Position numbers and translations under genes: made by a program. The notes under the pieces are model-generated. The model had not been told where the DNA came from. It did no database searches and saw nothing but the letters and a program-made list of their open reading frames with translations. A stretch of 64,000 nucleotides of DNA from an uncultured Chloroflexia bacterium. GTDB lineage: Bacteria; Chloroflexota; Limnocylindria; Limnocylindrales; CSP1-4. The stretch covers positions 387,170 through 451,169 of the forward strand of contig CAWBLU010000003.1 of assembly GCA_963789725.1 (NCBI GenBank), given 5' to 3'. How positions within the stretch are numbered: position 1 is the stretch's first letter; the number at the start of each line of letters is the position of its first letter. Positions 10,631 to 36,035 of this stretch are shown here, in pieces.

Positions 10631-10705
10631 GGGCCCGTAGCTCAACGGTAGAGCAAATGACTCTTAATCATTAGGTTCTCGGTTCGAATCCGAGCGGGCT
10701 CACCA
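10631..10705 (+). tRNA. tRNA-Lys (anticodon CTT)
   Basis: Folded by hand into a cloverleaf: 7-bp acceptor stem GGGCCCG/CGGGCUC with one G-U pair, D arm GCTC-AACGGTA-GAGC, anticodon stem AATGA/TCATT with loop CTCTTAA, T arm CTCGG-TTCGAAT-CCGAG, and an encoded CCA end. Confidence 0.85.
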
Positions 10706-20678: not shown

Positions 20679-20854
20679 TCTTCCGCGCTGAGTTCCGCTC
20701 GGCCGAACGCCGCCGGGATTCGCACAGGGGACTCCGCTCGGCCGCGACCGGAGATTGCGTTCCGGGCCATCGAAGCGCAAGCTGAGTGCCTGTCCGACCC
20801 CGCGCCGACGCCTCGGCCACGAGACTGCGGCCCGTCGGAAGGAGGTCGGAAGCG

Positions 20855-21157
20855 ATGAAAGTCGGCGAACACCCGGGCCCGGACACCACGGTGGCCTCTT
20901 CGAGGTCGGCCGGGCGCGACACGGCCGCGGAAGACGAGCTGAACGAGCAATTCCACGCATTGTTGCGAGATGCCGCCGACCAGCGCGAGGGGCGGGCTCA
21001 GACCAATCGTCAGGCCGATACGGCCGCGGCCGCCGAAGAGTCGACGGCCCTATTCAGGCTCGCACGAGGCGTAAGGCGAGCGCCTCGGGGACCCCACGCG
21101 GAACGGCCGACCGGCTCGAGCAACCGTTCCGCTGGTGTCGAGCCGGCGTCCGAGTAG
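20855..21157 (+). CDS. hypothetical small protein
   Basis: ATG follows a strong AAGGAGG RBS. Acidic N-terminal half; no recognisable domain. Confidence 0.35.
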   Translation: MKVGEHPGPDTTVASSRSAGRDTAAEDELNEQFHALLRDAADQREGRAQTNRQADTAAAAEESTALFRLARGVRRAPRGPHAERPTGSSNRSAGVEPASE

Positions 21158-21475
21158 AGATCCTCGAAATCGGCGGATTCCGCACATTCGACTTTCAGGA
21201 TTTCTTCAAGGTTGGAAGCCTATTCTGCCCTCAGTTCCTCCTTCCAACTCCTCCTGGAAGACGCCAGTGACGGGGCGCCTTCCCAGATCAAGCGGTCCGG
21301 GTCCTCCCTCCCCGGGCCGCTTGTGTTTGTCGGCGCGGGGCCCGTCGGGCAGACTGGGCGGTGCGTAGAGCCCTTGTGCGAGCTCCGCCCGGAGAACACG
21401 GCGGGAGATTCGGAAGGAAGGGGTGGGTGGCGCTCCGCCGTGCCGTCGCTTCCTCGGCCGTTGTAGGCTCTGCCA

Positions 21476-22045
21476 ATGCCGGACTACTACGAGGTCCTCC
21501 AGGTTCACCCGCGTGCCGAATCCGAGGTCATCCGGGCTGCCTACCGAACCCTTGCCCGCAAGTACCACCCCGACCACGGCGGCGATCCACGTCGGATGAT
21601 CGATTTGAACGATGCCTGGGATGTCCTGGGCGACCCGGCCCTTCGCGCGGCCTACGATGCGTCGCGGGCCAGGGTCGCGTCCGCACCGGCTCCGGCTACT
21701 CGCGCGGAACCCGCTCGGCGTCCACCCGAGGCCGCGCCGGCGACTCCGCCGCGCCCGGAGGGTGCCCGTCCGACATACTCGTCGAGCTCGGCATCGACCT
21801 CCGAGGTGGTCCATGCGGGTCCGCCACCGGGCCGCCCGTCCGGAACGGTGCTGGATTTCGGACGATACGCCGGGTGGTCCCTGGGCGAGATCGCACGCCA
21901 CGACCTCGACTACCTGGAGTGGCTCCAGCGGGCGACCTTCGGGCGGCGGTTGCGCGCGGAAATCGACGCGCTCCTGGCAGGACGCCGCGGGTCTTCGCCG
22001 GCCGCGCGCCCGCCGACGGGCCGAGGCTGGCCGGGACGGCGCTAG
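21476..22045 (+). CDS. J-domain (DnaJ-like) protein
   Basis: DYYEVLQV...AYRTLARKYHPDHGGD is a J domain with the HPD motif. Confidence 0.8.
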   Translation: MPDYYEVLQVHPRAESEVIRAAYRTLARKYHPDHGGDPRRMIDLNDAWDVLGDPALRAAYDASRARVASAPAPATRAEPARRPPEAAPATPPRPEGARPTYSSSSASTSEVVHAGPPPGRPSGTVLDFGRYAGWSLGEIARHDLDYLEWLQRATFGRRLRAEIDALLAGRRGSSPAARPPTGRGWPGRR

Positions 22046-22367
22046 CGCCGTTGCTCTGCCGGCTCGCAACCGCGAAGGGCTCGGCGACGAATTGTCACGT
22101 CGCTCTTCGCGGCCCCCCTCATGGAGCGCGGAGTTGCGCGAGGGGTCCCGCAGGGCCAGCAACGTTCGCCCGGCGGTCTCGGTTGGATCGCGCAACGTCC
22201 GACTGCGCCACCATAGCGGCGCCCACTTATCTGCGGCTTACTTCCGTCGGGCCCGCGGCCGGCCAGGGCGCTCCGTCTCGCGGGAATCGTGCGATTCGTA
22301 CGTACCGTCAGGCGGTTGCCCGTCCCGCTCGACTCCGCACCTCCGCTGCCGGAGGTAGCATCGGGTC

Positions 22368-23216
22368 ATGATGAAATTCGGACTGTCCCTGAGGAATACC
22401 GGCCCCGGATCGAGCGCCGAGGCGATCGAGGCGGGAGCGAAAACGGCCGAACGCCTCGGCTGGGAGACCGTCTGGACGACCGATCACGTTCTGGTGCCGG
22501 GGTCCGCGGCCGGCGAGTACGGGCGCACCTTCGAGGCGATCGAGACCCTGGCCTGGGTAGGGGCAAAGCACCCGCGCCTCAAGCTGGGCACGAGCGTGAT
22601 CGTCGTCCCGCAGCGCAACGCCGTGCTTCTCGCCAAGGAGCTGGCCACGCTCGACGTGCTGAGCGGTGGCCGCCTGATCGCCGGTGTAGGCGTCGGCTGG
22701 AACGAGACCGAGTTCGCGAACCTCGGCCTGGCCGATCGTTTTCACCGTCGCGGCGCATACCTGGACGAAACGATCCGACTGTGGCGCCACCTCTGGTCCG
22801 GTTCGGCCGAGCCGTTCGAGGGCGTGTTCCACGCCTTCAGCGACTTCGTCTTTGGGCCGTTGCCGGTCCGCCGGGATAGCGTTCCGATTCTGGTCGGCGG
22901 CTCGTCGGCCGCGGCGTTGCGGCGCGCCGGGGCCCTGGCAGACGGCTATCACGCCACCCGCGCGGCGCCCGACGAGATGGCTCGCCGTATTCCGGTCGTC
23001 CGGGCGGCCGCACAAGCCGCGGGTCGGCCGGCACCGTCGCTGTCGGTTCGGATGCCCGTCTCGGCGGAGCCGGACGCCATTCTTCGGGACGTTCGGGAGT
23101 ACGAGGCGATGGGCGTCGAGCAGCTGGCGGTCGTCTTCGCCGAGACCGAACCTGAACGCCTGCAATTGGCGATCGAACGGTTCGACGCCGAGGTCGTCCA
23201 GGCTCTGGCCGGTTGA
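22368..23216 (+). CDS. LLM-class (luciferase-like) F420-dependent oxidoreductase
   Basis: MKFGLSL...ERLGWETVWTTDHV N-terminus and overall profile typical of luciferase-like monooxygenase / F420-dependent reductases. Confidence 0.75.
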   Translation: MMKFGLSLRNTGPGSSAEAIEAGAKTAERLGWETVWTTDHVLVPGSAAGEYGRTFEAIETLAWVGAKHPRLKLGTSVIVVPQRNAVLLAKELATLDVLSGGRLIAGVGVGWNETEFANLGLADRFHRRGAYLDETIRLWRHLWSGSAEPFEGVFHAFSDFVFGPLPVRRDSVPILVGGSSAAALRRAGALADGYHATRAAPDEMARRIPVVRAAAQAAGRPAPSLSVRMPVSAEPDAILRDVREYEAMGVEQLAVVFAETEPERLQLAIERFDAEVVQALAG

Positions 23217-23692
23217 GCGACCCGTTTGTGCTGGCCCCGGCCGAGCGGGCCTTCCTGCTGGCGTGCCGGCGCATCGTAATGTGCACGGTCGCGGCCGATG
23301 GTTCGCCTCGCCCGGTGCCCATCTGCTTCGCCGTCGCGGACAGCCCGGCCGTGGAAGCGGAGTGTCTGTACACGCCGCTCGACGACAAACCGAAGCAGGT
23401 CCACGATCCGCGCCTGCTCGCGCGGGTCCGCGACATCGTCGCTCGCCCCGGCGTGATTCTCCTGGCCGATCGCTGGGACGAGGATTGGAGCCGGCTCGGT
23501 TGGTTGCGACTGCTCGGCCGAGCGCTGCTTTTGGAGCCCGGTTCGGGGCAGGCTGGCGGTGCCGAGGAGCACGCCTCGGCGGTAGCAGCTCTTCGCACCC
23601 GCTATCCCCAGTACCACGATCACGACCTGGCCAGTCGGCCGCTGATTCGGGTGGACATCACCTCGGCTCGATCCTGGGGCTCCCTCGTCTAG
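23213..23692 (+). CDS. PPOX-class (pyridoxamine 5'-phosphate oxidase-like) probable F420-dependent enzyme
   Basis: About 159 aa with the split-barrel FMN/F420-binding profile (RIVMCTVAADGSPRPVPICFA...). Start is TTG at 23213 overlapping the LLM stop, or alternatively GTG at 23228. Confidence 0.6.
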   Translation: MSDPFVLAPAERAFLLACRRIVMCTVAADGSPRPVPICFAVADSPAVEAECLYTPLDDKPKQVHDPRLLARVRDIVARPGVILLADRWDEDWSRLGWLRLLGRALLLEPGSGQAGGAEEHASAVAALRTRYPQYHDHDLASRPLIRVDITSARSWGSLV

Positions 23693-23799
23693 GGCGTAGG
23701 GCGTAGGGCGTTGGCGTCCGGGCGTAGGGCGTAGGGCGTAGGGCGTCCGGGCGGTTCGGCGGGCACTCGCCCGGCTCTCCGTCCGGCCGTCGTGCTAAC

Positions 23800-23966
23800 C
23801 TACCGCCAACCTTTGTTGCCGGCTCTGTGAGGCCGGCTTCCGGTCGATCCAGGCCGGGCATGCGGTCCAGAGAGGCCGCGGAGGAGCGAATGTTCGTCTG
23901 CGAGTCAAACCACCGCGCCGGTTCGGCCGGTGGCTTTTTTGTCCGGCCCGGCACTATCGGGGCCGG
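23800..23966 (+). promoter_or_regulatory. PyrR-dependent translation-coupled attenuator (leader) of carA
   Basis: Hairpin GCCGGC-tctgtgag-GCCGGC (23824-23843), then a PyrR box GGUCCAGAGAGGCCGCGGAGGAG (about 23864-23886) that overlaps the Shine-Dalgarno sequence of a leader ORF. Terminator CCACCGcGCC-ggttc-GGCCGGTGG followed by CTTTTTTGT (23910-23942). Confidence 0.7.
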
Positions 23967-23970
23967 ATGA
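23890..23970 (+). CDS. carA leader peptide (26 aa, MFVCESNHRAGSAGGFFVRPGTIGAG)
   Basis: ATG is 7 nt after GGAGGAG. The ORF runs through the terminator and its TGA overlaps the carA ATG (ggATGAtg). Confidence 0.5.
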   Translation: MFVCESNHRAGSAGGFFVRPGTIGAG

Positions 23971-25229
23971 TGCCTTCGGTGTCGCACGCCCTCAAGCAGC
24001 CGCCGTTTCCGCGGCCCAGCTCGGTCGTCGACCCGAGGGTTGGCGACTACGGCCCGGCCCTGCTCGCGCTCGAGGACGGGCGTTTATTCCCGGGCATCGC
24101 CTTCGGTTCGCAGCGCGCCGGCCAGGGCGACCTCGTCGTGAACACGAGCCAGACTGGCTACCAGGAGATCGCCACCGATCCCTCGTATGCGGGCCAGCTC
24201 GTAGTGATGACATACCCGCTGATCGGCAACTACGGCCGGGTCCACTATGACGACCAGTCCGAGAGGCCCTGGCTGCGCGGCCTGATCGTGGCGAACGCAA
24301 CGGCCGCAGTTCTGGACGATGCCCGGCAGCTGGCGACGATGCTGCGTGAGGCCAGCATCCCGGCAATCGCCGGCGTCGACACGCGCGCCCTCGCCCGTCA
24401 CCTCAGGGCCCACGGTAGCCTGCGGGCCATCGTGACCGCGCCGGGCGAGACGGACCCGGAAGAAGCGAGGGCTCGGGCTCGGGCCGTGCCGCGGTGGGAG
24501 GATCAAGATTTTGTGGCCGCGGTTTCGCCCGTCTCTGCTCGAGACGAAGGCGACGCGTCCGAGGGAGGCCCGCTCGTCGCCATCCTCGATTTCGGCCTCA
24601 AGACGAACATCGTGCGCAGCCTTCGCCGGCGCGGCGCCCGGGTGCGAATCCTGCCTCACACCGCGACGGCGGCCGACGCGCTGGCGCCGGAGATCGACGG
24701 CGTGGTCTTTTCGCCAGGTCCGGGCGATCCGGCCAGGCTGGACGGCCCGGTCGCGCTTGCTCGCCAGGTCATAGCCGACGGCCGGCCGCTGCTCGGAATC
24801 TGCCTGGGCCATCAGATCATCGGCCGCGCCGCCGGGGCAGACACTCGCCGGCTTCCGTTCGGCCACCATGCCGCCAACCATCCGGTCAAGGACCTCGAGA
24901 CGGGCCTGGTGCAGGTAACGGCCCAGAACCACGAGGTCACTGTCATCGCCGAGACGCTGCCGGACGCGAGCGGCTTCGTGGTCAGCCAGATCGACCTCAA
25001 CGACGGGTCCGTCGAAGGTCTGCGCCACCGCGCGCTGCCGATAGAAACGGTCCAGTACCACCCCGAGGGCGGCCCCGGCCCATTGGATGCGCTTGCGGTC
25101 TTCGACCGTTTCGTGACGGCCGCCCTGGCCCACCACGGCGGAGGAGAGCCGGTGCCGACGGTCGGCGCCGTCGAGCCACTCCACCTGGACACGGCGGAGC
25201 TGGCACGGCGCCTTCAGGGGATGAGCTAG
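23967..25229 (+). CDS. carA: carbamoyl-phosphate synthase small (glutaminase) subunit
   Basis: N-terminal domain ALLALEDGRLF..GxxxGEVVFNTSxTGYQE-like segment. C-terminal class I glutamine amidotransferase with LGICLGHQ (catalytic Cys) and the Y/H of the triad. Confidence 0.9.
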   Translation: MMPSVSHALKQPPFPRPSSVVDPRVGDYGPALLALEDGRLFPGIAFGSQRAGQGDLVVNTSQTGYQEIATDPSYAGQLVVMTYPLIGNYGRVHYDDQSERPWLRGLIVANATAAVLDDARQLATMLREASIPAIAGVDTRALARHLRAHGSLRAIVTAPGETDPEEARARARAVPRWEDQDFVAAVSPVSARDEGDASEGGPLVAILDFGLKTNIVRSLRRRGARVRILPHTATAADALAPEIDGVVFSPGPGDPARLDGPVALARQVIADGRPLLGICLGHQIIGRAAGADTRRLPFGHHAANHPVKDLETGLVQVTAQNHEVTVIAETLPDASGFVVSQIDLNDGSVEGLRHRALPIETVQYHPEGGPGPLDALAVFDRFVTAALAHHGGGEPVPTVGAVEPLHLDTAELARRLQGMS

Positions 25230-25295
25230 AGTCGGACACGCCCCGGAGCCGATGGGGAAGTTGACGAGCATGCCCACGGCCAGGATGGGAGAGCG

Positions 25296-25720
25296 ATGCG
25301 ACAGGTCGACAGCCTTGGCCACGCGGACGCGGAGCGGGCGATCGAGGCCGTTCAATCGGAGTTGTTGCGCCGCGACAAGACGGCGGTGGTCGCCGTGGCC
25401 GACGCTCAGGGCGAGCTCGTCGGCCTGCTGCGTCTGGACGGTGCACCCTTGCCCTCGATCACCATCGCGACGAACAAGGCCTGACCGCGGCCCGCGAGCG
25501 AAAGCCGACACTGGAGATCGGCCAGGCGGCCCTTGATCCGGAGCGCGTCTTCGACATCGCCTACTACGGTGATCTCCGGTACGTCGGGTGGGGCGGGGGA
25601 GTGCCGGTCCTGGTGCGAGGTCAGGTCGTTGGAGCGGTGGCTGTGAGCGGGCTCACACAAGAGGAGGACGCGGAGCTGGCCGGACTCGGCGCGGGCGCGG
25701 TCGTCGCGGGATTGGGTTGA
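25296..25720 (+). pseudogene. GlcG/HbpS-like DUF336 protein, apparently disrupted by a 1-nt frameshift
   Basis: Frame A (25296-25484) encodes ...VAVADAQGELVGLLRLDGAPLPSITIATNKA*. The downstream portion is in another frame, from about 25481 to 25720: LTAARERKPTLEIGQAAL...GGGVPVLVRGQVVGAVAVSGLTQEEDAELA. Together these make a typical roughly 135-aa DUF336 protein, with the shift at about 25478-25485. Confidence 0.55.
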
Positions 25721-25897
25721 CCTGAGCGGTCGGGCCTCGCCCGAACCTTTTCGACCAGGAACCCCGCGCTGGTCTCCCCCGGCCGGTATTCGGTGGGCTT
25801 CCGCGGCGCGAGACGGTACGTCGAGGGCCCACCCCAGACCGGCCTCAAGATCCAGAATGCGGTCTAGCCGATAACTCGATTACTCGCCGGTGAAGCG

Positions 25898-27226
25898 GTG
25901 AAGCTACTCCGAGCGCTCCTCATCGCTCTTCTTGCCGCGGCTGTCACGGCCTGCGACCTCTCCCCAACGCCCCTGCCGGCGTCCTCGCCGACCGGTCGCG
26001 TCACGCCGGCAAGGCCAACAGCGGGCGCCACCCCTATCGCCGCCCCTGCGACCAGCGTCGCGGTTACACCCACGGACCATCTCATAGTGGTGCGAGAGGC
26101 AGGCGGTGTCGGAGAGTTCTACGACCGCGCCACGGGCGCGAAGTTTGTGCCGCGCGGCATGAACTACATCCGCCTGGCGAACCAGACCAAGGCCGACGGG
26201 TCGGTCACGTTCGGCCATTCCGTGTTCGATCCCGGCCGGTACGACCAGCCCCGCGTGGGCGGCGCCCTGGAGAAGATTCACGCCGACGGTTACAACACCG
26301 TCCGCGTGTTCCTCAGTCCGGACACGATGGGCACGGCCGACGGCGGTCTCTCGCCCGAGTACATGAAGAACGTCGCCGATTTCCTGCGTCTGGCGAGCGC
26401 TAACGCCATCTACGTGATGTTCACCCTCGACTGGATCCCCGGCGGCAAGTACGGCGCGATCTTGAACACGGATTGCTGTTCGGCCTTCGCCCTGATGAAT
26501 GCCAACTTCCTGCCTCCTGCTGGCCTCGAGGCGAATCAGGTCTTTTACCGGGACTTCATTCACGGATTGCTGGACCTCGGAGCGCCCACGGAGTACGTAT
26601 TCTCGTACGAATTGAGAAACGAGATGTTCTACGACTCGGACTTGCCGCCGCTCTCGTTCAAGTCGGGCGTCGTGACGACGGCGAATGGCAAGTCGTACGA
26701 CATGGCCAAGGCGTCGGACAAGGATCTGATGGTGCGCGAAAACCTCGTGTACTGGATCGACCATATGCGCGCCTCGATCCAGGAGGTCGATCCGACTGCG
26801 CTCGTGAGCGTCGGCTTCTTCCAGCCGCAACAGCCGAACCCGACCCGAGAGGAGGACCCGCGTCTCGCGATGACCGAGCCGGCCATCTGGCAGTCCACGG
26901 CCGACTTCGTCGACCTGCACGCGTACCCGGGGTCCGGCTTGACCCTCAAGCAGTATGTCGAGAACTTCGGCATCAACGGCATGAAGCAGAAGCCGATTGT
27001 CATGGGCGAATTCGGCGGCGAGATCTCCCGGTTCCCGTCCGTCTCGGTGGCGGCGCAGACATTCGCGGCCTGGCAGGCGGAATCCTGCTCCTACGGCTTC
27101 GACGGCTGGTTGTTCTGGTCCTGGGATCTGAGCGAGCAACCCGACTTCTTCAACGCCTTGATGTATCAGGGCGCGATCAACGGCGTGCTCGCCCCCGTCG
27201 CGCGGCCGGATCCCTGCTCGGTTTAA
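25898..27226 (+). CDS. secreted lipoprotein, TIM-barrel glycoside hydrolase-like (GH5-like)
   Basis: GTG start; signal peptide with lipobox LLAAAVTAC, a Pro/Thr/Ala linker, then a domain with RGMNYIRL...GYNTVRVFL...DWIPGG pattern resembling GH5-type (beta/alpha)8 hydrolases. Family assignment is tentative. Confidence 0.45.
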   Translation: MKLLRALLIALLAAAVTACDLSPTPLPASSPTGRVTPARPTAGATPIAAPATSVAVTPTDHLIVVREAGGVGEFYDRATGAKFVPRGMNYIRLANQTKADGSVTFGHSVFDPGRYDQPRVGGALEKIHADGYNTVRVFLSPDTMGTADGGLSPEYMKNVADFLRLASANAIYVMFTLDWIPGGKYGAILNTDCCSAFALMNANFLPPAGLEANQVFYRDFIHGLLDLGAPTEYVFSYELRNEMFYDSDLPPLSFKSGVVTTANGKSYDMAKASDKDLMVRENLVYWIDHMRASIQEVDPTALVSVGFFQPQQPNPTREEDPRLAMTEPAIWQSTADFVDLHAYPGSGLTLKQYVENFGINGMKQKPIVMGEFGGEISRFPSVSVAAQTFAAWQAESCSYGFDGWLFWSWDLSEQPDFFNALMYQGAINGVLAPVARPDPCSV

Positions 27227-27376
27227 GGACGGCGAGTTGCGCCGGCCGGGACGACGGGGTCGACAGGCCGACCCTATGCCGGTCCTGGCGCCGATACCGC
27301 GGCCCACCTCGAGAGACGTAGATTGGCGTCATCGCCGGTCGGGGTAGGAAACAGGGCCGGCGACGGAGGCAACTCG

Positions 27377-27610
27377 ATGGACCCGATCACCGCCAGGATG
27401 CTCAGCCAGGCTCACATTTCCGAACTCCACGCCGAAGGCGCCGCCAACCGCATGGCGGCCGCGGCCCACAAGAAGAGCCGGGTCGAGTCGCCGTGTCGGA
27501 TCGAGGCGGTCGGTCGAAAGCCCCGAGTGGAGCTTCCGCAGGTCGACTGCTCCTGGTTCGAGCGACTCTGGGCGACGATCCGCCGCGCTATCCCTGCGCG
27601 CGCCGCCTGA
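27377..27610 (+). CDS. hypothetical small protein
   Basis: ATG preceded by GGAGGC; 77 aa; no recognisable domain. Confidence 0.3.
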   Translation: MDPITARMLSQAHISELHAEGAANRMAAAAHKKSRVESPCRIEAVGRKPRVELPQVDCSWFERLWATIRRAIPARAA

Positions 27611-27630
27611 CCTCGCCCGGGCGAAGCCGC

Positions 27631-27828
27631 TCAGCGCCGCACTGGGCGGCACATTTGCCCACTGGCCCCGCGCCGCGCGACGTTTAGCGAAAGCGACTCG
27701 CTGTGGTCGCGCTCGATCAGCGACATCGTCCCCTGAGCAACCCCGGCTATGCCCGCCAGCTCAAGCTGGCTCATCCCGCGCCGCTTTCGAACGGCCCTGA
27801 TGACAGCTCCGAACTGGACATCGTTCAC
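27631..27828 (-). CDS. XRE-family (Cro/CI-type HTH) transcriptional regulator
   Basis: IRAVRKRRGMSQLELAGIAGVAQGTMSLIERDH is a canonical HTH_XRE. Divergent from the membrane-protein gene. Confidence 0.7.
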   Translation of the reverse strand: MNDVQFGAVIRAVRKRRGMSQLELAGIAGVAQGTMSLIERDHSESLSLNVARRGASGQMCRPVRR

Positions 27829-28078
27829 GCGGCGATTGTCAACGAGGCCACTTCACGACCGCTTATCTGCGAAGCTATGTCCGCCAGTTCTGTTGGATGC
27901 GCGAAGCCGGCTGGAGGCGGGAGCCCGTGGTGATGACGGTCAAGAGTCGTGACCTCGCCGCGGCCGCATCGAACCTGGGGGCGGCGCCACCCGCGACGCC
28001 ATCCTCGGCCGCATCGAACCTGGGCGCGGCACCACCCTCGGCACCACCCGCGGCAGCGGCGACCGATGTGGGCCCCCG

Positions 28079-28585
28079 ATGAAACTGCACAGCGGCCTGA
28101 CGGTCAACGGCCGATCGTACTCCAAGGGCGACGAGATCCCGGGGTTCTTCGTCTACCCCTTCTTCCTCGTGCACATGCTGGCGTTCGGCGTCTCGGGCTT
28201 CGTCCTGGCCTACAGCGGCGCGCCAGCGCTGTTTCTGTTCATGCACGGCGGCATCGCGATCTTCGTCTACACCGTCTTCTATCTGGCCATCTTCGGCCTG
28301 GACGAAGTCAAGTGGATGTTCATCAACGCCGGACTGGGGATCTTCGGGATCCTCAGCCAGATCGACTGGTTGCTCTCCCTGTTCGGCCGCCGGGTCGCCG
28401 ACTACCCGGTCTACGTGCACATCATTCCGTTCCTCTACTTCGTGCTCTACACGTTCCTGATCCGTCACGCCCTGCTCGATCTGCTGGGCGCCCGAGACGA
28501 CGACGCGAAGAGGACCCGGGTGCAGTACGGCTACATCGGCGCGTCGGTGGCCTTCTACGTGTTCGCGCACGTGCTCGAGGGCTGA
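28079..28585 (+). CDS. hypothetical integral membrane protein (5 predicted TM helices)
   Basis: 168 aa with five strongly hydrophobic 20-25 aa segments. Start overlaps the stop of a short upstream repeat-containing ORF (ATGA). Confidence 0.55.
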   Translation: MKLHSGLTVNGRSYSKGDEIPGFFVYPFFLVHMLAFGVSGFVLAYSGAPALFLFMHGGIAIFVYTVFYLAIFGLDEVKWMFINAGLGIFGILSQIDWLLSLFGRRVADYPVYVHIIPFLYFVLYTFLIRHALLDLLGARDDDAKRTRVQYGYIGASVAFYVFAHVLEG

Positions 28586-28641
28586 CGGCGAGCGTCGCGC
28601 GGACCCCGCTCGTCTGGCCGCGCGTGCGGCCTTTCGCTTCG

Positions 28642-29670
28642 TCAGCCGTCCCAGCGGACCCGGACGTGCTGCCGGATACCGGGCAGCGGCATCGACGCGG
28701 CCTCCGCCTCCACAGCCGCTCGTTCCGCGGTCGAGAGCCGGCGCCACGACTCGATCGTGACGTTGGTTTGCGCGCGTCGCCACGTCCCGGCAATCTCGCC
28801 GCTCACAAGGACGGCCCCGGGCCAGACTCGGGGCGTCCAGAGCGCGCGACGATTGTCGGGGTCAGGGACCAGCAATTCCCGATCGGCTCCTTGCAGTAGG
28901 AAGTAGGCGTCCCCGCTCGGGAGAAGCCGAGCGAGCGCCGCCGATCCGCCGGGGGCACGGAACGCCGGCTCGTCTTCGGCCAGGATCCATGCGTCGCCGG
29001 CCGGCGTTCGGACCGGCGTCAGCGATTCGCCGAGCGCGGCGAACGCGGCCCGGCCGGCGGCGGCTCTCGGCCTGATCCCGGCCCACTCGGCAAATGCGGC
29101 GGGCGTGGCCGGCCCGAAGATGTGCAGGTAGCGGCGCGCAAGCTCGAGGCGTGCCTGGCGCGGGTCGACGCCCGGTGGCGGCACGGTCCAGATGGCCGGC
29201 TGCCGCGCCCCATCCCACCGGATCAGCACCGTGCCGGTCGGCGCGGCATACCTCAGGCTGTTCGGGTGCACGCCGAGCGCGTGCCCCACTTCGCCGTAGT
29301 TCATCCTTCGACCGTCGAGGAAGCCGTGTAGCCGGAGGGCGAGATCGTCCGCCCGGCGTCGCAATTCGCCGCCTTCGGCGAGCCGCCCGAGCGAGAAGAT
29401 CGCGAGGTCAACCTCGGCGACGACGTAAACGCTCCACCGAGGTCCCCAAACCTGCACGAGCGACGCGTCCTCCCAGGTTTCCGGTCTGGTCCCCTGAACG
29501 CGTGCATGGATCGACAGGACCGCCGCGCGAGGCACGCTGTCCTGCAGCCCCGCCCAGGCCGCCCGTCTGAGCGACACAGGGCCGGGCGGCAACCGCTCGT
29601 CGAGACCACCGACCGATCGTCGGTACCTGAGGATCTGCTCGCGCGTCAACTCGAGCCGGGCCGAGGCCAT
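28642..29670 (-). CDS. winged-helix DUF1006 protein, YcaQ/AlkZ-like (putative DNA glycosylase family)
   Basis: N-terminus LTREQILRYRRSVGGL...AAVLSIHARV and C-terminus LLPSGDAYFLL...RVWPGAVLVSGEIAGTWRR resemble the YcaQ/AlkZ HTH_42 family. The Q-phi-(Q/D) catalytic motif is not clearly conserved (LQD). Confidence 0.5.
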   Translation of the reverse strand: MASARLELTREQILRYRRSVGGLDERLPPGPVSLRRAAWAGLQDSVPRAAVLSIHARVQGTRPETWEDASLVQVWGPRWSVYVVAEVDLAIFSLGRLAEGGELRRRADDLALRLHGFLDGRRMNYGEVGHALGVHPNSLRYAAPTGTVLIRWDGARQPAIWTVPPPGVDPRQARLELARRYLHIFGPATPAAFAEWAGIRPRAAAGRAAFAALGESLTPVRTPAGDAWILAEDEPAFRAPGGSAALARLLPSGDAYFLLQGADRELLVPDPDNRRALWTPRVWPGAVLVSGEIAGTWRRAQTNVTIESWRRLSTAERAAVEAEAASMPLPGIRQHVRVRWDG

Positions 29671-29855
29671 TCGATGTCATCTCCGCGGAGAGCGGGTTCG
29701 CGCGACCACTGTAGCGGGCCACATCAAGCCGCTGCGAGTCGGCCCAGGCGCCGCGCGGGGACTAGCGCTCATGAACAGCGGCACGATCAGGGCCCGAGCA
29801 GCTCCTGGCTAGAGTAATGTGCTACCGTGTGCTACATGAAGACTGCGGCGCGAAC

Positions 29856-30158
29856 ATGAGCGAAGGGGAGGCACCCGCGCGTGTGGGGGTGCGCGAGCTT
29901 CGGCAGAACCTCTCCGTGTATCTGCGGCGCGTGGAGAGAGGGGAGACTCTCGACGTGACCGAACACGGTCGCCTGGTGGCGCGCCTTGCGCCGGCGCCGG
30001 CTCCGGAGGTGAGTATCCTGGACAGGTTGATCGCGGAAGGTCGAGCCACGCCGGCCAGCCGTTCGATCGGCGACCTTCCGGAACCGATCAAACTGGCGCC
30101 GGGCTCTGAGAGCGTCTCGGATGTGCTCCGCCGGATGCGCGAGGAAGAACGCTGGTGA
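29856..30158 (+). CDS. Phd/YefM-family type II antitoxin
   Basis: VGVRELRQNLSVYLRRVERGETLDVTEHGRLVARLAP is a Phd/YefM signature. Stop overlaps the vapC start. Confidence 0.7.
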   Translation: MSEGEAPARVGVRELRQNLSVYLRRVERGETLDVTEHGRLVARLAPAPAPEVSILDRLIAEGRATPASRSIGDLPEPIKLAPGSESVSDVLRRMREEERW

Positions 30159-30556
30159 GCCAGACCTATGTCGACTCGTCGGCCCTCGTGAAGTTGATCG
30201 TCGATGAGCCAGAAACCGATGCGCTGCGGCGGCATATCGCCTCGGCCGGGCCGCTTGCGTCCAGCATTCTCGCAACCGTCGAGGTCTCGCGGGCGGTCGC
30301 TCGGGTCGCGCCTGCATCGATGGCCGAGGTCGCCGCCGTGCTCCAGGCGCTGAACGTTATGGCCTTCGACGCCCGAATCGCCGCCCGCGCAGCCGCGCTG
30401 GGTCCGGCCAGCCTGCGTGCCCTCGATGCCATCCACCTGGCGACGGCTCTCGAGTTGCGGGACGAGCTGACTGCCTTCATCTCCTACGATGAGCGCCTGC
30501 TGGCAGCAGCCCGCGACCTGGGCCTGCCCGTGGTCGCGCCGAGCGGCTACTTGTGA
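30155..30556 (+). CDS. vapC: PIN-domain toxin VapC
   Basis: YVDSSALVKLIVDE ... DAIHLATA ... ISYDERL is a PIN fold with the acidic residues in place. Confidence 0.75.
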   Translation: MSQTYVDSSALVKLIVDEPETDALRRHIASAGPLASSILATVEVSRAVARVAPASMAEVAAVLQALNVMAFDARIAARAAALGPASLRALDAIHLATALELRDELTAFISYDERLLAAARDLGLPVVAPSGYL

Positions 30557-30792
30557 AGCGGACTCTGAAGGCTGACGAGTTCGACACGAGGTTCGACACG
30601 GGGCAGGACGTCACAGGCGACCTCGACCGGTCTGCTGCCCGCCGCCCCCTTCAGAAGGCCAGGCGCGTCAACGTGGACTTCCCGTCATGGATGGTCGAGT
30701 CGCTGGACCGCGAGGCGAAGCACCTCGGCGTCACCCGCCAGTCGGTCATCAAGATGTGGATCGCGGAGCGGCTGGAGAAGCGGGCGTCGTAG
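30553..30792 (+). CDS. ribbon-helix-helix CopG/BrnA-like antitoxin-family protein (orphan)
   Basis: GTG start overlaps the vapC stop. [15 protein letters not shown]...[38 protein letters not shown] matches the BrnA/CopG-antitoxin architecture. No BrnT-like toxin is adjacent. Confidence 0.55.
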
Positions 30793-31281
30793 GTAATGGG
30801 ACCAGGCGCTGGCATCGAACGTTGTCCGAGGTGAGTGAGCTACGAGTACACCCGCGAGCCGCGGCGTCTTCGCGCCAGCGCCGACGGCGCGGGCTCATTC
30901 TGAGTGAAACGTGGCGCTGAGAATGAGCCATCCCGCTCGCTGCCGTAGAAATCGCCCGAGGCAGACAGCAACTCTTGGAGGCACTTCGCCGAGCCCCCGG
31001 GCAAAGGACGTTTCGGCCGAGCTTCTCAGCCAACTCCCTGTCGCCGTGGACGACCCGGAGCCCGCGCCGAACCTTCGTCTCGGACGGGTATCCCTCTCCT
31101 CCGCTTACCGGTCGGCTCGAAAGGAGGGGAGGTTCTCGAATTCGCTGTGGCGCATCATGTCGGGCCCTGGACCGCTCAGCAGCCAGCGTTTCATTCCGGC
31201 CGATCATCCGGTTTCGCCCGTGGCCCGGGAGTTATGCTCAACGGCAAGTTGTTGGCCAGCGACGTCGTGGGGGTGGCGTGA

Positions 31282-32301
31282 ATGGACCCTGTGTATCAAT
31301 GGAAGGCCATTGAGAGCTCCTTCAGTTCCGGCCTAGTTCTTGGCAACGGAAGTTCCATTGCTTTCGACCGGAGGTTCGCTTACGGCTCTCTCAAGGGACT
31401 CGCCGTAGAAGAGGGCCTCATCACTGCCGACGTGGACAAGGTCTTTCGCCACCTCGACTCCGATGACTTCGAATTAGTGATGCGAATGCTCTGGCACGCC
31501 AGCCAAATCAACCAGGCACTCGAAGTCGAGGACCCAAGGACGTCGGCAGCCTACTCCTCGGTCCGAGATGCTCTGATCGCGGTGGTACAGGCTGTACACG
31601 TACCGTATGGGGCGGTCTCTGATCGCCTTCCCTTGGCTGCTGACTTCATGTCGCGCTTCTCCACCGTCGTCTCCCTCAGCTACGACCTCCTGGTCTACTG
31701 GGCCATCCTTTCGGCGAATGACGAACGGGCAAATCGCTTCAAGGATTGCTTCATTAGGGGGCAATTCAATCAAGACTGGCAGTGGCTTCGGCAACCCTAC
31801 CGCTCGAATTGGGCGAGCACTCTCGTGTTCTATCCGCATGGCAACCTCGCCCTGGCGGCTACGCTTAGCGGGGCTGAGTTCAAGATCCAAGTCGACGGAG
31901 GCGCTCTCCTGGAGACCGTTTTCGATCGTTGGCGCGAAGATGCGACCCCTTTGTTCGTAAGCGAGGGCACGTCCGAGCAGAAGCGCGCGGCGATCCGTCG
32001 AAGCCCGTATCTGTCCGCCGTCTACGACGAAGTCCTACCGGAGCTGGGAGAGAGCGTAGTGACTCTGGGATGGTCAATGGGCGAGAACGACGACCATCTT
32101 CTCGAAGCGATCTGTCGAAGAGGAACCCGGAGATTCGCCGTGGCGGTCGATCCCAACTCAGACCGCCTCGCTGAGAGCCAAGCCAATGTGCGCCGCCGGA
32201 TCAGCGGTCTGCTTCGTGAAGAATTGGGCGAAGTCGTCTTCTATGATTGGACCAGCCCAGGTTGTTGGATCAATCTCGATCCCGCGGAGGTCGACAGATG
32301 A
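31282..32301 (+). CDS. SIR2-like (SIR2_2/DUF4917-type) domain protein, candidate NAD-dependent defence effector
   Basis: 339 aa with LVLGNGSSIAF (GxGxS NAD-binding motif), SLSYDLLVYW (NYD-type motif) and FYPHGNL (HG motif), in the order and spacing seen in SIR2-like domains such as ThsA. Gene GC is about 57% against a roughly 70% background. Confidence 0.55.
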   Translation: MDPVYQWKAIESSFSSGLVLGNGSSIAFDRRFAYGSLKGLAVEEGLITADVDKVFRHLDSDDFELVMRMLWHASQINQALEVEDPRTSAAYSSVRDALIAVVQAVHVPYGAVSDRLPLAADFMSRFSTVVSLSYDLLVYWAILSANDERANRFKDCFIRGQFNQDWQWLRQPYRSNWASTLVFYPHGNLALAATLSGAEFKIQVDGGALLETVFDRWREDATPLFVSEGTSEQKRAAIRRSPYLSAVYDEVLPELGESVVTLGWSMGENDDHLLEAICRRGTRRFAVAVDPNSDRLAESQANVRRRISGLLREELGEVVFYDWTSPGCWINLDPAEVDR

Positions 32302-32384
32302 TCCCCTGGTGTTCTCGCCTGGCATGGGACGCCGCTTTCTAGCGATTAGGGCCATCTTCTGCGTCGGGTGCTGCTATCCTTCCC

Positions 32385-32534
32385 CCAGCCCTTGAGGCCG
32401 GGTCTGTGAGCCCGGCGGAAGTCAAAGAGACGGCTTGCCGGCGCTTTGACTCGCGGTCCTGAGAGGCCGGGGAGGAGAACGATGCGCCCGTGTAAGCTGA
32501 ACCACCGCGCCCGCGAGGCCGGTGGCTTTTTTGT
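32385..32534 (+). promoter_or_regulatory. PyrR-dependent translation-coupled attenuator (leader) of carB
   Basis: Hairpin GCCGGG-tctgtgag-CCCGGC (same loop as the carA leader, compensatory stem changes). PyrR box GGUCCUGAGAGGCCGGGGAGGAG at 32456-32478. Terminator CCACCGcGCC-cgcga-GGCCGGTGG then CTTTTTTGT (32502-32534), with a stem identical to the carA leader. Confidence 0.7.
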
Positions 32535-32538
32535 ATGA
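32482..32538 (+). CDS. carB leader peptide (18 aa, MRPCKLNHRAREAGGFFV)
   Basis: ATG is 5 nt after GGAGGAG. The TGA overlaps the carB ATG (gtATGAcg). Shares ...NHRA..AGGFFV with the carA leader peptide because both span the same terminator. Confidence 0.5.
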   Translation: MRPCKLNHRAREAGGFFV

Positions 32539-35500
32539 CGGATGAGCCCTTGACACTTCCTGCAACTCAGCCCCTCGTGGCGCCGCGAGCGGAGCGGCGC
32601 AAGCCTGAGAGCGCGCTCATCATCGGTTCGGGGCCGGTCGTGATCGGGCAGGCGGCCGAGTTCGACTACGCCGGCACGCAGGCCTGCCGCGCCCTCCGCG
32701 CCGAGGGCGTCCGAACCATCCTGGTCAACTCGAACCCCGCGACGATCATGACCGACGCGGAGGTGGCCGACGCCGTCTACCTCGAGCCGCTCACCGTCGA
32801 GGCCATCGAGCAGGTCATCGCCAGAGAGCGGCCCGAGGGGCTCCTCGCCGGCCTTGGCGGCCAGACCGGCCTCAACCTGGCCGTGGCCTTGGCCAAGGCC
32901 GGCGTCCTCGACAAGTACAACGTCCGGCTCATCGGAACGCCGCTCGAGGCGATCGAGATGGCCGAGGACCGCGAGCTGTTCCGTGACCTGCTCGACCGGA
33001 TCGGCCAGCCGTACGCGCCCAGCTGCATCGTCGAGGGCGAGACGGATGAGGCGCGCGACAAAGCGGCCAAAGAGGCCCTGGCCGAGATCGGCCTCCCAGC
33101 GATCATCCGGCCGGCGTTTACGCTCGGGGGCACCGGGGGCGGCATCGTCGAGACGGAGGCGGCGTACTGGGAGCGCACCCGCACCGGCCTTCGGCTGAGC
33201 CCGATCAACCAGGTCATGATCGAGCGCTGCCTGGTGGGCTGGCAGGAGATCGAATACGAGGTCATGCGCGACGCGGACGACACCTGCATCGCCGTCTGCT
33301 CGATGGAGAACGTCGACCCGCTGGGCGTCCACACCGGCGACTCGATCGTGGTCGCGCCGGTCCAGACGCTGCCGGACCCGGTCCACCAGCGCCTCCGCAG
33401 TGCCGCGCTCTCGATCATCCGGGCGCTCGGCGTGGAGGGCGGCTGCAACGTCCAGTTCGCGCTTTCGCCGGACTACACCGAATACGCGGTCATCGAGGTC
33501 AACCCGCGCGTCAGCCGATCCTCCGCGCTGGCGAGCAAGGCGACCGGCTACCCGATCGCGCGTGTCGCGGCGCAGATTGCCGCAGGGCGGCGCCTGGCAG
33601 AAATCCCGAACGTAGTGACCGGCACGACGGTCGCGGCTTTCGAACCGGCGCTGGACTACGTCGTCGTCAAGCTGCCCCGCTTCCCGTTCGACAAGTTCCC
33701 CACGGCCGACCGATCGCTGGGCAGCCAGATGAAGGCGACCGGCGAAGTGATGGCGATCGACCGAACGTTTGGGTCGGCGCTGAACAAGGCCTTGCGCGCG
33801 CTCGAACAGGCCGGCGCCGGCTTCCTGGCCGAGAACGCCGCCTGGCGGGCGACGCTCGACTACCTGATGGAGCCCGCGGTAGCCCAGCCGATGGTGACGG
33901 TCGACGGCGGCGGGCTGCTGTGCGAGGCCCGGGCCCATGCCGAACGAGCCGCCTATCCGATCGTCCTCAAGCGGTTCCTGGCCCCATCCGACTCGCGGCT
34001 GTGGCGGATCCTGGCACTGCTGCGGCGCGGCATGCCGGCCGAGCGGATCCGCGGCGTGACCGGCATCTCGGCCTGGTTCCTGCAGGAGTTCGAGCGAGCG
34101 ATCACGCTCGAGCGCGACGTTCGCCGGATGGGCGCGCGCATGACCGATCCACGGGACGAGGAGACGGCCGAACTCCTGGCGACGGTGAAGCGGGCCGGCT
34201 TCGGGGATCGCGAGCTGGCGCAGATGGCCGGCGTGCCGGCCGAGTCGATCCGGCTGGCCCGGATGGAGCTGGGCCTCGTGCCCGGCTACGCGATGGTGGA
34301 CACGTGCGCGGCCGAGTTCGCCGCGGAGACGCCCTACTTCTACGCCACGTACGCCGCGGCCGGCTCGGAGCCGGAACTGCCGCCCGTGGAGCGGCCAGCG
34401 GCGCTGGTGATCGGCAGCGGCCCGGTGCGGATCGGGCAGGGGATCGAGTTCGACTATTGCGCCGTCCAGGCCGCCGCCGAGCTGCGCGCCCAGGGCTGGC
34501 AGGCCGTGATGATCAACTCCAACCCCGAGACGGTCTCGACCGACTTCGACGCCTCGTCACGCCTCTACTTCGAGCCGCTTGATCCCGAAAGCGTCCGTTC
34601 GGTCGTGGAAGCCGAGTCGCCGGCTGGCGCCGACGGCGTTGCCGCGCCGCTGCTCGGCGCATTCGTCCAGTTCGGCGGCCAGACGCCCCTCAACCTGGCC
34701 GAGCCGCTCGCGGCCGCCGGTATCCCGCTCCTGGGCGCGAACCTCGAGACGATCGACCAGGCCGAGGACCGCATCCGCTTCGCGAACCTGGTCGAGTCGC
34801 TCGGCATTCCCCAGCCCGAAGGCGGCATGGCCCGATCGATAGAGGAGGCGCTGGCGCTGGCCGACCAGATCGGCTACCCGGTGATCGTTCGGCCCTCGTT
34901 CGTCATCGGCGGCCTGGCCATCGACTTCAGCTACTCGCCGTCCGATCTCGTAAACCAGCTGGAGCGCGCGACCGTCGTCGATCCCGACCGGCCGGTCCGG
35001 ATCGACCGCTATCTGGAAGGTGTCGAGGTGGACATCGATGCCGTGGCCGACGGCGAGACGGTCCTCATTCCCGGCCTGCTCGAACACGTCGAACGGGCCG
35101 GCGTTCATTCCGGCGACTCGGTCGGGATGTTTCCGCCGCAGACCGTGTCCGTGGCGGACCAGGAGTTGATCGTCGCCGCCATGGACCGCATCGTGCGTGC
35201 CCTCGACGTCCACGGCCTGGTCAACGCCCAGTTCATCGTCCGAGAAGACGGCGTCTACTTGATCGAGGTGAACCCGCGGGCCAGCCGAACCGTGCCGTTC
35301 ATGAGCAAAGTGACCGGCGTGCCGATGGTCAAGCTGGCCGTCCGGATCGCCCTGGGCGAGAAGCTGGCGGACATGGGGTGGGGGAACGGGCTGCTGGCGC
35401 CGCCTCCCCTGGTCGCGGTCAAGGCCCCGGCATTCTCCACGGCCAAGCTGCGCGGCGTGGATCCGTCCGTGGGGCCGGGGATGCAGTCGACCGGCGAGGT

Positions 35501-36035
35501 CATCGGCATCCACCAGGACCCGCGCGTGGCCCTCGCCAAAGCGATGCAGGGCGCCGCGCTGATCCCGCCGCGGCCGGGTGCCGGCGGCGCGCTGGCGCTC
35601 ATCTCCGTCGCGGAACGAGACCACGGGGAGTTGCCGCGAGTGGCCGCCGCCCTGTCTCGCGCCGGCTACCGGTTCGCGGCAACGTCCGGCACCGCGGCCG
35701 AGCTGGCCGCTCTCGGCTTCGCGGCCCAGGTCGTGGCCAAGGTCGGCGAGAAGCCGGTCGACGGCGAGATCCCGATCCTCGACCTGATCGCCGGCGGCAC
35801 CGTCCGGCTCGTGGTAAACACGCCGGCCCCCAAGTCCGGCCCGGTCCGCGACGCCGCGGAGATCCGGCTCGCCGCCACGGCGGAAGGCATCCTGTGCCTG
35901 ACCGCGATTGAGACCGCCGTCGCCGCGGCCGAGGCCCTGGACCCGGACCTGCGGTCGCGCCTGGCCGAAGTTCGTTCCCTGGGCGATTGGGTGCCGGACC
36001 CGGGTGTGCCGCGGCCCGCGCTGAAGCTGAGCTAG
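32535..36035 (+). CDS. carB: carbamoyl-phosphate synthase large subunit
   Basis: Two ATP-grasp halves (ALIIGSGPVVIGQAAEFDYAGTQA...; ALVIGSGPVRIGQGIEFDYCAVQA...), an oligomerisation domain and a C-terminal MGS-like domain. Confidence 0.92.
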   Translation: MTDEPLTLPATQPLVAPRAERRKPESALIIGSGPVVIGQAAEFDYAGTQACRALRAEGVRTILVNSNPATIMTDAEVADAVYLEPLTVEAIEQVIARERPEGLLAGLGGQTGLNLAVALAKAGVLDKYNVRLIGTPLEAIEMAEDRELFRDLLDRIGQPYAPSCIVEGETDEARDKAAKEALAEIGLPAIIRPAFTLGGTGGGIVETEAAYWERTRTGLRLSPINQVMIERCLVGWQEIEYEVMRDADDTCIAVCSMENVDPLGVHTGDSIVVAPVQTLPDPVHQRLRSAALSIIRALGVEGGCNVQFALSPDYTEYAVIEVNPRVSRSSALASKATGYPIARVAAQIAAGRRLAEIPNVVTGTTVAAFEPALDYVVVKLPRFPFDKFPTADRSLGSQMKATGEVMAIDRTFGSALNKALRALEQAGAGFLAENAAWRATLDYLMEPAVAQPMVTVDGGGLLCEARAHAERAAYPIVLKRFLAPSDSRLWRILALLRRGMPAERIRGVTGISAWFLQEFERAITLERDVRRMGARMTDPRDEETAELLATVKRAGFGDRELAQMAGVPAESIRLARMELGLVPGYAMVDTCAAEFAAETPYFYATYAAAGSEPELPPVERPAALVIGSGPVRIGQGIEFDYCAVQAAAELRAQGWQAVMINSNPETVSTDFDASSRLYFEPLDPESVRSVVEAESPAGADGVAAPLLGAFVQFGGQTPLNLAEPLAAAGIPLLGANLETIDQAEDRIRFANLVESLGIPQPEGGMARSIEEALALADQIGYPVIVRPSFVIGGLAIDFSYSPSDLVNQLERATVVDPDRPVRIDRYLEGVEVDIDAVADGETVLIPGLLEHVERAGVHSGDSVGMFPPQTVSVADQELIVAAMDRIVRALDVHGLVNAQFIVREDGVYLIEVNPRASRTVPFMSKVTGVPMVKLAVRIALGEKLADMGWGNGLLAPPPLVAVKAPAFSTAKLRGVDPSVGPGMQSTGEVIGIHQDPRVALAKAMQGAALIPPRPGAGGALALISVAERDHGELPRVAAALSRAGYRFAATSGTAAELAALGFAAQVVAKVGEKPVDGEIPILDLIAGGTVRLVVNTPAPKSGPVRDAAEIRLAATAEGILCLTAIETAVAAAEALDPDLRSRLAEVRSLGDWVPDPGVPRPALKLS

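Follow-up and report, generated by a model that had tools for sequence, protein, structure and literature searches.

The pyr attenuators of Bacillus subtilis (BL1-3; Rfam family RF00515) carry the GUCCnGnGAGGC motif, a lower stem of the CCUU/AAGG type and a downstream intrinsic terminator, and they stand before pyrimidine genes, with several sites for one pathway; pyrAA and pyrAB of Bacillus are the homologues of carA and carB. In Thermus strain ZO5, the PyrR box reportedly overlaps the ribosome site of a leader peptide, the terminator is said to lie in the leader-peptide coding region with its end overlapping the first gene, and PyrR is reported to block leader translation, by which termination is permitted. 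In Mycobacterium smegmatis, PyrR reportedly sequesters the ribosome-binding site and so represses translation, and we know of no terminator described for that leader. In pyrBI of Escherichia coli, a ribosome on the leader ORF near the polymerase prevents a terminator upstream of the pyrimidine gene, the signal being UTP-sensitive pausing of the polymerase, with no RNA-binding protein.

We analysed the carB leader of the window, that is, the whole stretch of 64,000 nucleotides. We propose that 32372-32538 probably serves carB, transcribed on its own, as promoter and 5' leader; this leader is an old paralogue of that of carA and would act as a ribosome-mediated attenuator occluded by PyrR. Its parts and surroundings are as follows (window positions):

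25230-32371, no strand: block of 7.1 kb with accessory genes, separating carA from the carB leader
32372-32380, + strand: extended -10 promoter-like element TGcTATCCT (TG at 32372-73, hexamer TATCCT at 32375-80)
32390-32393, + strand: CCUU, 5' strand of the closing helix P0 (anti-Shine-Dalgarno), pairing with GAGG at 32472-32475 in the minimum-free-energy fold of 32390-32484
32397-32416, + strand: hairpin H1, GCCGGGU / CUGUGA / GCCCGGC, sequence GCCGGGTCTGTGAGCCCGGC, from pattern match and fold
32420-32451, + strand: hairpin H2', AGUCAAAG...CUUUGACU, a lineage-specific insert, from the predicted fold
32454-32469, + strand: hairpin H3, CGGUC / CUGAGA / GGCCG, carrying the canonical PyrR box, from fold and pattern match
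32455-32468, + strand: PyrR box GGUCCUGAGAGGCC (also given as GGTCCTGAGAGGCC), in a 5-bp stem with a hexaloop
32471-32477, + strand: Shine-Dalgarno sequence GGAGGAG of the leader ORF, which is the 3' strand of P0, 6 nt before the ATG
32482-32538, + strand: leader ORF of 18 codons, MRPCKLNHRAREAGGFFV then TGA; ATGA at 32535-32538 overlaps the carB ATG
32502-32532, + strand: intrinsic terminator inside the leader ORF, predicted at -16 kcal/mol
32535-36035, + strand: carB, carbamoyl-phosphate synthase large subunit, the regulated gene (Pfam; NCBIfam NF003671, 1326 bits)

The likeness to the B. subtilis attenuators extends to each of the traits named above. Unlike them, however, the carB leader has no detectable antiterminator or anti-antiterminator, and the 3' strand of its lower stem is the Shine-Dalgarno sequence itself; moreover, in these leaders the ORF spans the terminator, the junction holds one to three hairpins and the Rfam model misses them. 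The closest putative functional analogue is the Thermus ZO5 leader. As there, the Shine-Dalgarno sequence and the start of a short ORF lie within or beside the predicted PyrR-bound structure (32471-77, with the ATG 6 nt on), and the intrinsic terminator is inside the leader ORF (32502-32532 in 32482-32538). Thermus ZO5 belongs to another phylum, however, and its single box regulates a pyrR-led operon, whereas the carA and carB leaders regulate separate genes, contain tandem or triple hairpins and exist as two paralogous copies. With the leader of M. smegmatis, likewise from a high-GC organism, the carB leader would share PyrR-based sequestration of the ribosome site, from which it differs by a U6 terminator inside a leader ORF whose translation is coupled to the gene. 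Unlike in E. coli pyrBI, the proposed signal is occlusion of the leader's ribosome site by PyrR. By analogy, the proposed mechanism would therefore combine mycobacterial translational repression with a use of the ribosome like that in pyrBI.

Every feature that the earlier note had listed for the carB leader was seen at 32385-32538 when the sequence was read directly, and the 18-codon ORF, with its TGA overlapping the carB ATG, translates as claimed. The extended -10 element would be the promoter of the carB leader and would place the transcript start at about 32387-32389; its pattern, TGnTAnnCT, is 90-100% conserved at constant spacing to CCUU among 29 aligned leaders. H1 is best drawn with a 7-bp stem, a U-G closing pair and the hexaloop CUGUGA. 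H2' occupies the site where relatives carry just the linker GUA; it is missing in three orthologous carB leaders (L087, L138 and L157), and other hairpins take its place in L121, L131 and the window's carA leader. The terminator stem (32502-32511 / 32517-32525) has 9 bp with a single bulged C and the loop CGCGA (32512-32516), and is followed directly by C and U6 (32527-32532). In the full-length minimum-free-energy fold, the H2' region 32430-32446 pairs with the first codons of the leader ORF (32483-32500), a pairing with a z-score of only -1.3 that may be chance or an added layer masking the start codon.

The paralogous leader of carA has the same organisation:

23793-23970, + strand: carA leader, with -10 element TGcTAACCT at 23793-801, CCUUU at 23810-14, H1 at 23818-37 and H2 at 23840-57
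23862-23879, + strand: H3 with the PyrR box of the carA leader, followed by the Shine-Dalgarno sequence at 23880-86
23890-23970, + strand: carA leader ORF of 26 codons, with an ATGA overlap onto the carA ATG at 23967
23910-23933, + strand: terminator of the carA leader, then T6 at 23935-40
23967-25229: carA, confirmed by Pfam and NCBIfam

The claim that the carB leader repeats the whole carA arrangement thus held, and the motifs are unique to the two leaders within the window. Indeed, the pattern shared by the two H1 copies (that of carA being GCCGGCTCTGTGAGGCCGGC at 23818-23837) gave two matches in the 64 kb, one in each leader, against 0.2 expected; the PyrR box GGTCC[A/T]GAGAGGCC was found exactly twice (23864-23877 and 32455-32468), and so was the terminator stem with its U-tract, AACCACCGCGCC-N5-GGCCGGTGGCTTTTTTGT (23908-23942 and 32500-32534), for which 100 shuffles led us to expect none. 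The arms of the 9-bp terminator stem are identical in the two leaders and the 5-nt loops differ (ggttc in carA, cgcga in carB), as had been noted; the U-tract is identical too. The alignment of the two leaders has a mean column identity of 79%, and their similarity begins 5' of 32385, at the extended -10 element common to both. No further leader copy was found in the window by the motif patterns or by a covariance model, R1, trained solely on the carA and carB leaders. Both leaders contain an extra hairpin between H1 and H3, CCGGUCGAUCCAGGCCGG in carA and the unrelated H2' in carB. The G-C versus C-G swap between their H1 stems is genuine; the GUCC core of H1 is lost in both (GGCUCUG and GGGUCUG instead of GGUCCUG), and compensatory changes preserve the stem. 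About 40 nt upstream of the -10 element of the carA leader lies a tandem heptamer repeat, TAGGGCG, in about eight copies (23690-23753), which also scored with a 28-nt period.

The assignment to PyrR was examined with Rfam and with comparative searches. RF00515, whose gathering score of 54 bits the carB leader does not reach, gave no match to it even at E<=10, a weak match to the carA leader (25.8 bits, E=8.5) and none to seven related leaders; membership in the PyrR type therefore rests on features. The box of the carB leader fits all the strongly conserved positions of the RF00515 loop consensus, and the hairpin loop and upper stem read (A/G)GUCCnGnGAGGC(U/C). The lower stem is of the CCUU/AAGG type, with the extra hairpins sitting in the 5' internal loop, and carB lies directly downstream. 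The earlier note had proposed to look for the similarity at other pyr loci, and in a metagenome scan the same arrangement of box, CCUU and Shine-Dalgarno sequence was indeed found in other lineages, where it precedes pyrB, pyrD and, on 22 contigs classed by blastx, pyrR. Its placement before carA, carB, pyrR, pyrB and pyrD ties the motif specifically to pyrimidine genes. On the window, R1 found only the two known copies (52.4 bits for the carA leader); elsewhere it recovered single-box sites on which it had not been trained before pyrB/pyrR operons (L005, L007 and L013; E 1e-4 to 0.01), together with weaker single-box matches (L054, L016, L010 and L029; E 0.05-0.5). These single-box sites belong to Dormibacterota and other Chloroflexota. 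The carB leader is thus best modelled as a PyrR-type RNA switch of a variant that RF00515 does not detect, and PyrR would be its binding protein.

The gene for PyrR itself was searched with tblastn and a verified PyrR query. No pyrR was found in the window, in the loci of about 12-21 kb from the five closest genomes (L001-L004 and L022), or near the tandem leaders (those with two PyrR-type hairpins) at any collected locus, and in the metagenome scan the tandem leaders occur solely at carA and carB. Two pyrR leaders, L101 and L194, whose promoter region resembles that of Limnocylindrales-like carA leaders, were considered as a route to the PyrR of this lineage and dropped; their PyrR proteins are presumably actinobacterial, to judge by their looks.

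In its 400 N-terminal residues, carB is 83-90% identical to its counterparts in these five genomes, all of them Chloroflexota MAGs and one bearing the name Candidatus Limnocylindrales; the source organism is thus a relative of that group within the Chloroflexota. Each of the five has a homologous leader upstream of carA and none has a carB leader. The two genes abut, or nearly so, in three of them (L001, L002 and L022), and a spacer of a few hundred bp separates them in L003 and L004. The two spacers (about 9790-9985 in L003 and 9650-9965 in L004) contain no PyrR box and carry repeated CGTATCTGGCA/CGTATCTGACA motifs.

The metagenome scan, made with a pattern of box plus Shine-Dalgarno sequence, yielded 120 loci. 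When the genes downstream of these, of the five genome loci and of the window were classed by blastx, 47 leaders were assigned to carA, 8 to carB (including a second match on L126) and 22 to pyrR; other genuine sites precede pyrB (ATCase family) and pyrD. The remaining matches were mostly due to chance, within genes and without the CCTT motif, and extra box matches in L116 and L088 were likewise rejected as chance matches inside genes. About 50 distinct leaders upstream of carA or carB have the layout CCUU-H1-H3-Shine-Dalgarno. Most of them stand before a carA-carB pair that lies side by side; one sub-lineage has the two genes apart, with a leader for each. Briefly, the usual order from 5' to 3' is TGnTAnnCT, CCUU(U), H1 (GCCGGUC-CUGUGA-GGCCGGC), the linker GUA, H3 (CCGGUC-CnGnGA-GGCCGG in the family), (G)AAGGAGG and a start codon. 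We describe this as a tandem PyrR box because H1 and H3 both fit the PyrR loop consensus GUCCnGnGAGGC of the Rfam alignment. H1 had been seen as a merely covarying hairpin; its compensatory swap is real, but in about 45 relatives H1 is a second PyrR box, GGUCCUGUGAGGCC, which has become degenerate in both window copies. The two window leaders are derived forms of the family layout.

For the proposed structure, 95.4% of cells are paired in 29 full leaders against 36-54% for slid controls, and three H1 pairs change on both sides in the 29 leaders of alignment A2. The H3 stem and box do not vary among the collected leaders, but the pattern used to gather them fixes these very bases. All 49 thermodynamic folds pair the 5' CCUU segment with the Shine-Dalgarno region, and P0 is predicted to form without protein. 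Four leaders lack CCTT: three carry UCCU or CUCC there, still complementary to GGAGG, and the fourth is the carB leader of L126, with an unrelated 5' region. As a consequence of this pairing, the PyrR box of the earlier note is present, but the extent quoted for it runs into the Shine-Dalgarno sequence, the partner of the conserved CCUU. Besides those of the window, triple-hairpin leaders occur in L131 (carA) and L121 (carB). In the latter (9881-9981, - strand), the middle hairpin, GGUCCAU-CGCGACCGACCGAUCGGUCGCG-CGAGGCC, is a PyrR box into whose loop a perfect hairpin of 9 bp has been inserted. In tandem leaders (e.g. L133, 10179-10241), the minimum-free-energy fold is often one extended hairpin that pairs the 5' arm of H1 with the 3' arm of H3, because H1 and H3 are near-copies; in such predictions, the extended hairpin could be a protein-free conformation that PyrR must remodel.

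The carB copy had been described as independently evolved, and this did not stand. L087, L121, L138 and L157, whose carB is 92-96% identical to that of the window, have carB leaders that agree with the window's in promoter, boxes, 18-codon ORF, terminator and overlap. The window's carB leader is 79-83% identical (3' part) to these four against 68-70% to its own carA leader, and is therefore an old paralogue with orthologues. As the carA and carB leaders within the sub-lineage are also closer to one another than to outgroup carA leaders, these sequence relationships are explained by a single duplication at the base of the sub-lineage with split carA and carB, a copy that would be neither independent nor recent. 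Consistent with the split, carB is absent from at least the first 3.3 kb downstream of carA in L117, and no carA was found within the roughly 0.7-2.1 kb examined upstream of the carB leader in L121, L138 and L157.

It had also been suggested that the insert between the genes forced carB to acquire or retain its own attenuator. The leader does go with the separation of carA and carB, but in L126 a single-box leader lies between adjacent carA and carB, and a carB leader therefore requires no insert. The L126 carB leader is nearer to carA leaders from outside the sub-lineage than to the carB leaders of the sub-lineage, in a comparison of short sequences, which tentatively hints at a second, separate duplication. 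In the window, the 7.1-kb block encodes a GH5 glycosidase, an HTH protein, an AlkZ-like glycosylase, a Phd/YefM-PIN pair, a CopG-like antitoxin and a DUF4917 protein. Two stretches, 26.0-27.5 kb and 30.5-32.5 kb, have a lower GC content (0.60-0.64) than the flanks (about 0.70), and none of the ORFs scanned in the block matched a transposase family. The Phd/YefM-PIN pair also has homologues upstream of the L157 carB leader.

Conservation of the leader ORF was assessed in the 53 carA or carB leaders in which a start codon of this ORF could be called. In 40 of these, the stop codon overlaps an in-frame gene start (NTGA, with ATG, GTG or TTG), an overlap which is kept despite ORF lengths of 16-59 codons and which by our estimate would arise by chance in roughly one in five. 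In about nine leaders, the start codon that follows the Shine-Dalgarno sequence shares the frame of the gene, and in five of these it directly opens the gene. All five carB leaders of the sub-lineage (window, L087, L121, L138 and L157) have 18 codons and the stop/start overlap. The conserved frame, length and NTGA overlap lend indirect support to the idea that read-through and gene expression would require translation of the leader. The sub-lineage also shares the hairpin CCACCGcGCC-N5-GGCCGGUGG with five or six Ts inside the leader ORF. Its arms are invariant in 10 sub-lineage leaders, wobble positions included, and the loop varies in nearly all of them; since the arms do not change at third codon positions while the loop codons do, the constraint is on the RNA and not on the peptide. 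The run of five or six Ts after the stem is uninterrupted in the sub-lineage copies, with the exception of L131 (TTTCTT). Across the wider family, the pairing register is displaced in eight sequences, where a G-to-A change is coupled with a C-to-G change; this set was chosen with a pattern for the same hairpin, and its invariance is thus partly built in. In sister clades, the hairpin within the leader ORF is kept and the U-tract is weak or absent; termination may therefore have been added late to a control that is basically translational.

The earlier note called the element an attenuator. The PyrR type and the terminator stood, whereas a Bacillus-type antiterminator, which would compete with both the binding loop and the terminator, was undetectable, and the features point to translation of the leader ORF. 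No RNA antiterminator was detectable, since the best duplex, between the H3/Shine-Dalgarno region and the 5' arm of the terminator, reached -11.9 against -11.8 +/- 2.4 for shuffles, and in none of the 29 leaders is the candidate duplex as strong as the terminator.

We therefore favour a ribosome-mediated attenuator, because the Shine-Dalgarno sequence is occluded, the leader ORF spans the terminator, stop and start overlap and no antiterminator is detectable. The leader RNA would fold as a junction composed of the CCUU/Shine-Dalgarno closing helix, the H3 box, the degenerate H1 and the inserted H2'. When pyrimidine nucleotides are plentiful, PyrR would sit on the box or boxes and clamp the junction, and no ribosome would load on the leader ORF. 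The GC-rich hairpin and U6 would then form inside the ORF and transcription would stop just before carB; any transcript that reads through would be poorly translated, as carB initiation would rely on re-initiation at ATGA. When pyrimidines are scarce, PyrR would be released, and a ribosome translating the leader close behind the polymerase would block the terminator hairpin and hand over to the carB start codon. In E. coli, a terminator is suppressed by a ribosome close to it, and one that lies in the first 100 bp of a coding region works efficiently (PMC4824070). From the latter, ribosome protection here would need pausing of the polymerase. Against this model stand the lack of pyrR in the loci examined, the lack of an RF00515 match to the carB leader, the weak or absent U-tracts of sister clades, the prediction that P0 forms without protein and the lost core of H1.

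The main rival, which we regard as unlikely, is purely translational control of the mycobacterial type: PyrR would hide the Shine-Dalgarno sequence, carB would be made only through coupling to the leader ORF, and the hairpin with U6 would be a constitutive partial stop or a mask on the carB start until a ribosome passes. It draws on the fact that no features are conserved more widely than Shine-Dalgarno occlusion and the NTGA overlap, on the many related leaders that have the hairpin with a poor or absent U-tract, and on GGUGG, a possible weak Shine-Dalgarno sequence for carB that lies within the 3' arm of the hairpin. However, in all the sub-lineage copies the invariant, GC-rich stem of 9 bp leads directly into a T-run, as in a textbook intrinsic terminator. 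Clearly less probable still is Bacillus-type attenuation, the best-studied PyrR mechanism, in which PyrR stabilises an anti-antiterminator, an antiterminator competes with the terminator and the leader ORF would be incidental. The order of box and terminator is alike, and GGCCGCGGAGG of the carA leader is partly complementary to the 5' arm of the terminator (-14.0 kcal/mol); nevertheless, antiterminator duplexes equal shuffles and are weaker than the terminator across the 29 leaders, the frame and length of the ORF are conserved, as is its stop/start overlap, and the Rfam model of the Bacillus-type architecture fails to match.

We give only a slim chance to a lineage without PyrR, in which the box-like tandem hairpins would be read by another protein or would sense a metabolite or nucleotide directly. 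This would account for the lack of pyrR in the window and near carAB of the five closest genomes and for the restriction of tandem leaders to carA and carB, but the PyrR-consensus bases are exact in all 49 leaders and an identical box precedes pyrR, pyrB and pyrD in other lineages. If true, it would mean a new class of regulator that keeps the shape of an old binding site. That the carB leader is a decaying, non-functional remnant of the duplication is hardly credible: its H1 box has degenerated and it has gained an additional hairpin, yet the four orthologues (L087, L121, L138 and L157) keep the -10 element, CCUU, boxes, Shine-Dalgarno sequence, 18-codon ORF, terminator and overlap. The earlier view that both copies are functional accordingly fares well, in that the second copy looks functional and its parts are kept in those orthologous leaders. 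The ribosome-mediated attenuator occluded by PyrR thus remains our preferred reading.

The locus illustrates how a cis-regulatory leader travels with its gene as an operon breaks up. Most relatives have one leader for an adjacent carA-carB pair; in the window's sub-lineage the genes are kilobases apart, each with a full copy, and both subunits are therefore still open to joint regulation. The PyrR-type architecture, which the Rfam model misses, comprises one to three PyrR hairpins in a junction, an anti-Shine-Dalgarno closing helix and a coupled leader ORF that may or may not contain a terminator. Uncultured Chloroflexota of soil and freshwater appear to carry it commonly, and the single-box form appears to precede pyrR, pyrB and pyrD in other high-GC lineages. 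Together, these leaders offer a natural series for how PyrR stoichiometry and ribosome coupling set the response.

Some further observations concern other leaders and other parts of the window. Single-box pyrR leaders often have a leader ORF of 7-33 codons whose stop codon overlaps or abuts the pyrR start (ATGA or TGATG), as on contigs L081, L094, L101, L161, L162, L171, L172, L178, L179, L186 and L194; to our knowledge, this layout has not been described for pyrR leaders apart from Thermus ZO5. A terminator lies inside the leader ORF in 6 of the 14 pyrR leaders with such an ORF (L081, L162, L178, L100, L103 and L156). The only Rfam match at gathering threshold in the window is a tRNA gene (10631-10702, + strand, 73.7 bits). 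A sub-threshold match to CcsR1 (RF02791, 27.4 bits, E=0.005) at 21250-21328 (+ strand) corresponds to an intergenic element between the ORFs at 20755-21270 and 21361-22371, with two hairpins, a CCUCC-rich loop and a short U-rich tail, and it overlaps weak matches to ar14 and ftsZ-DE.
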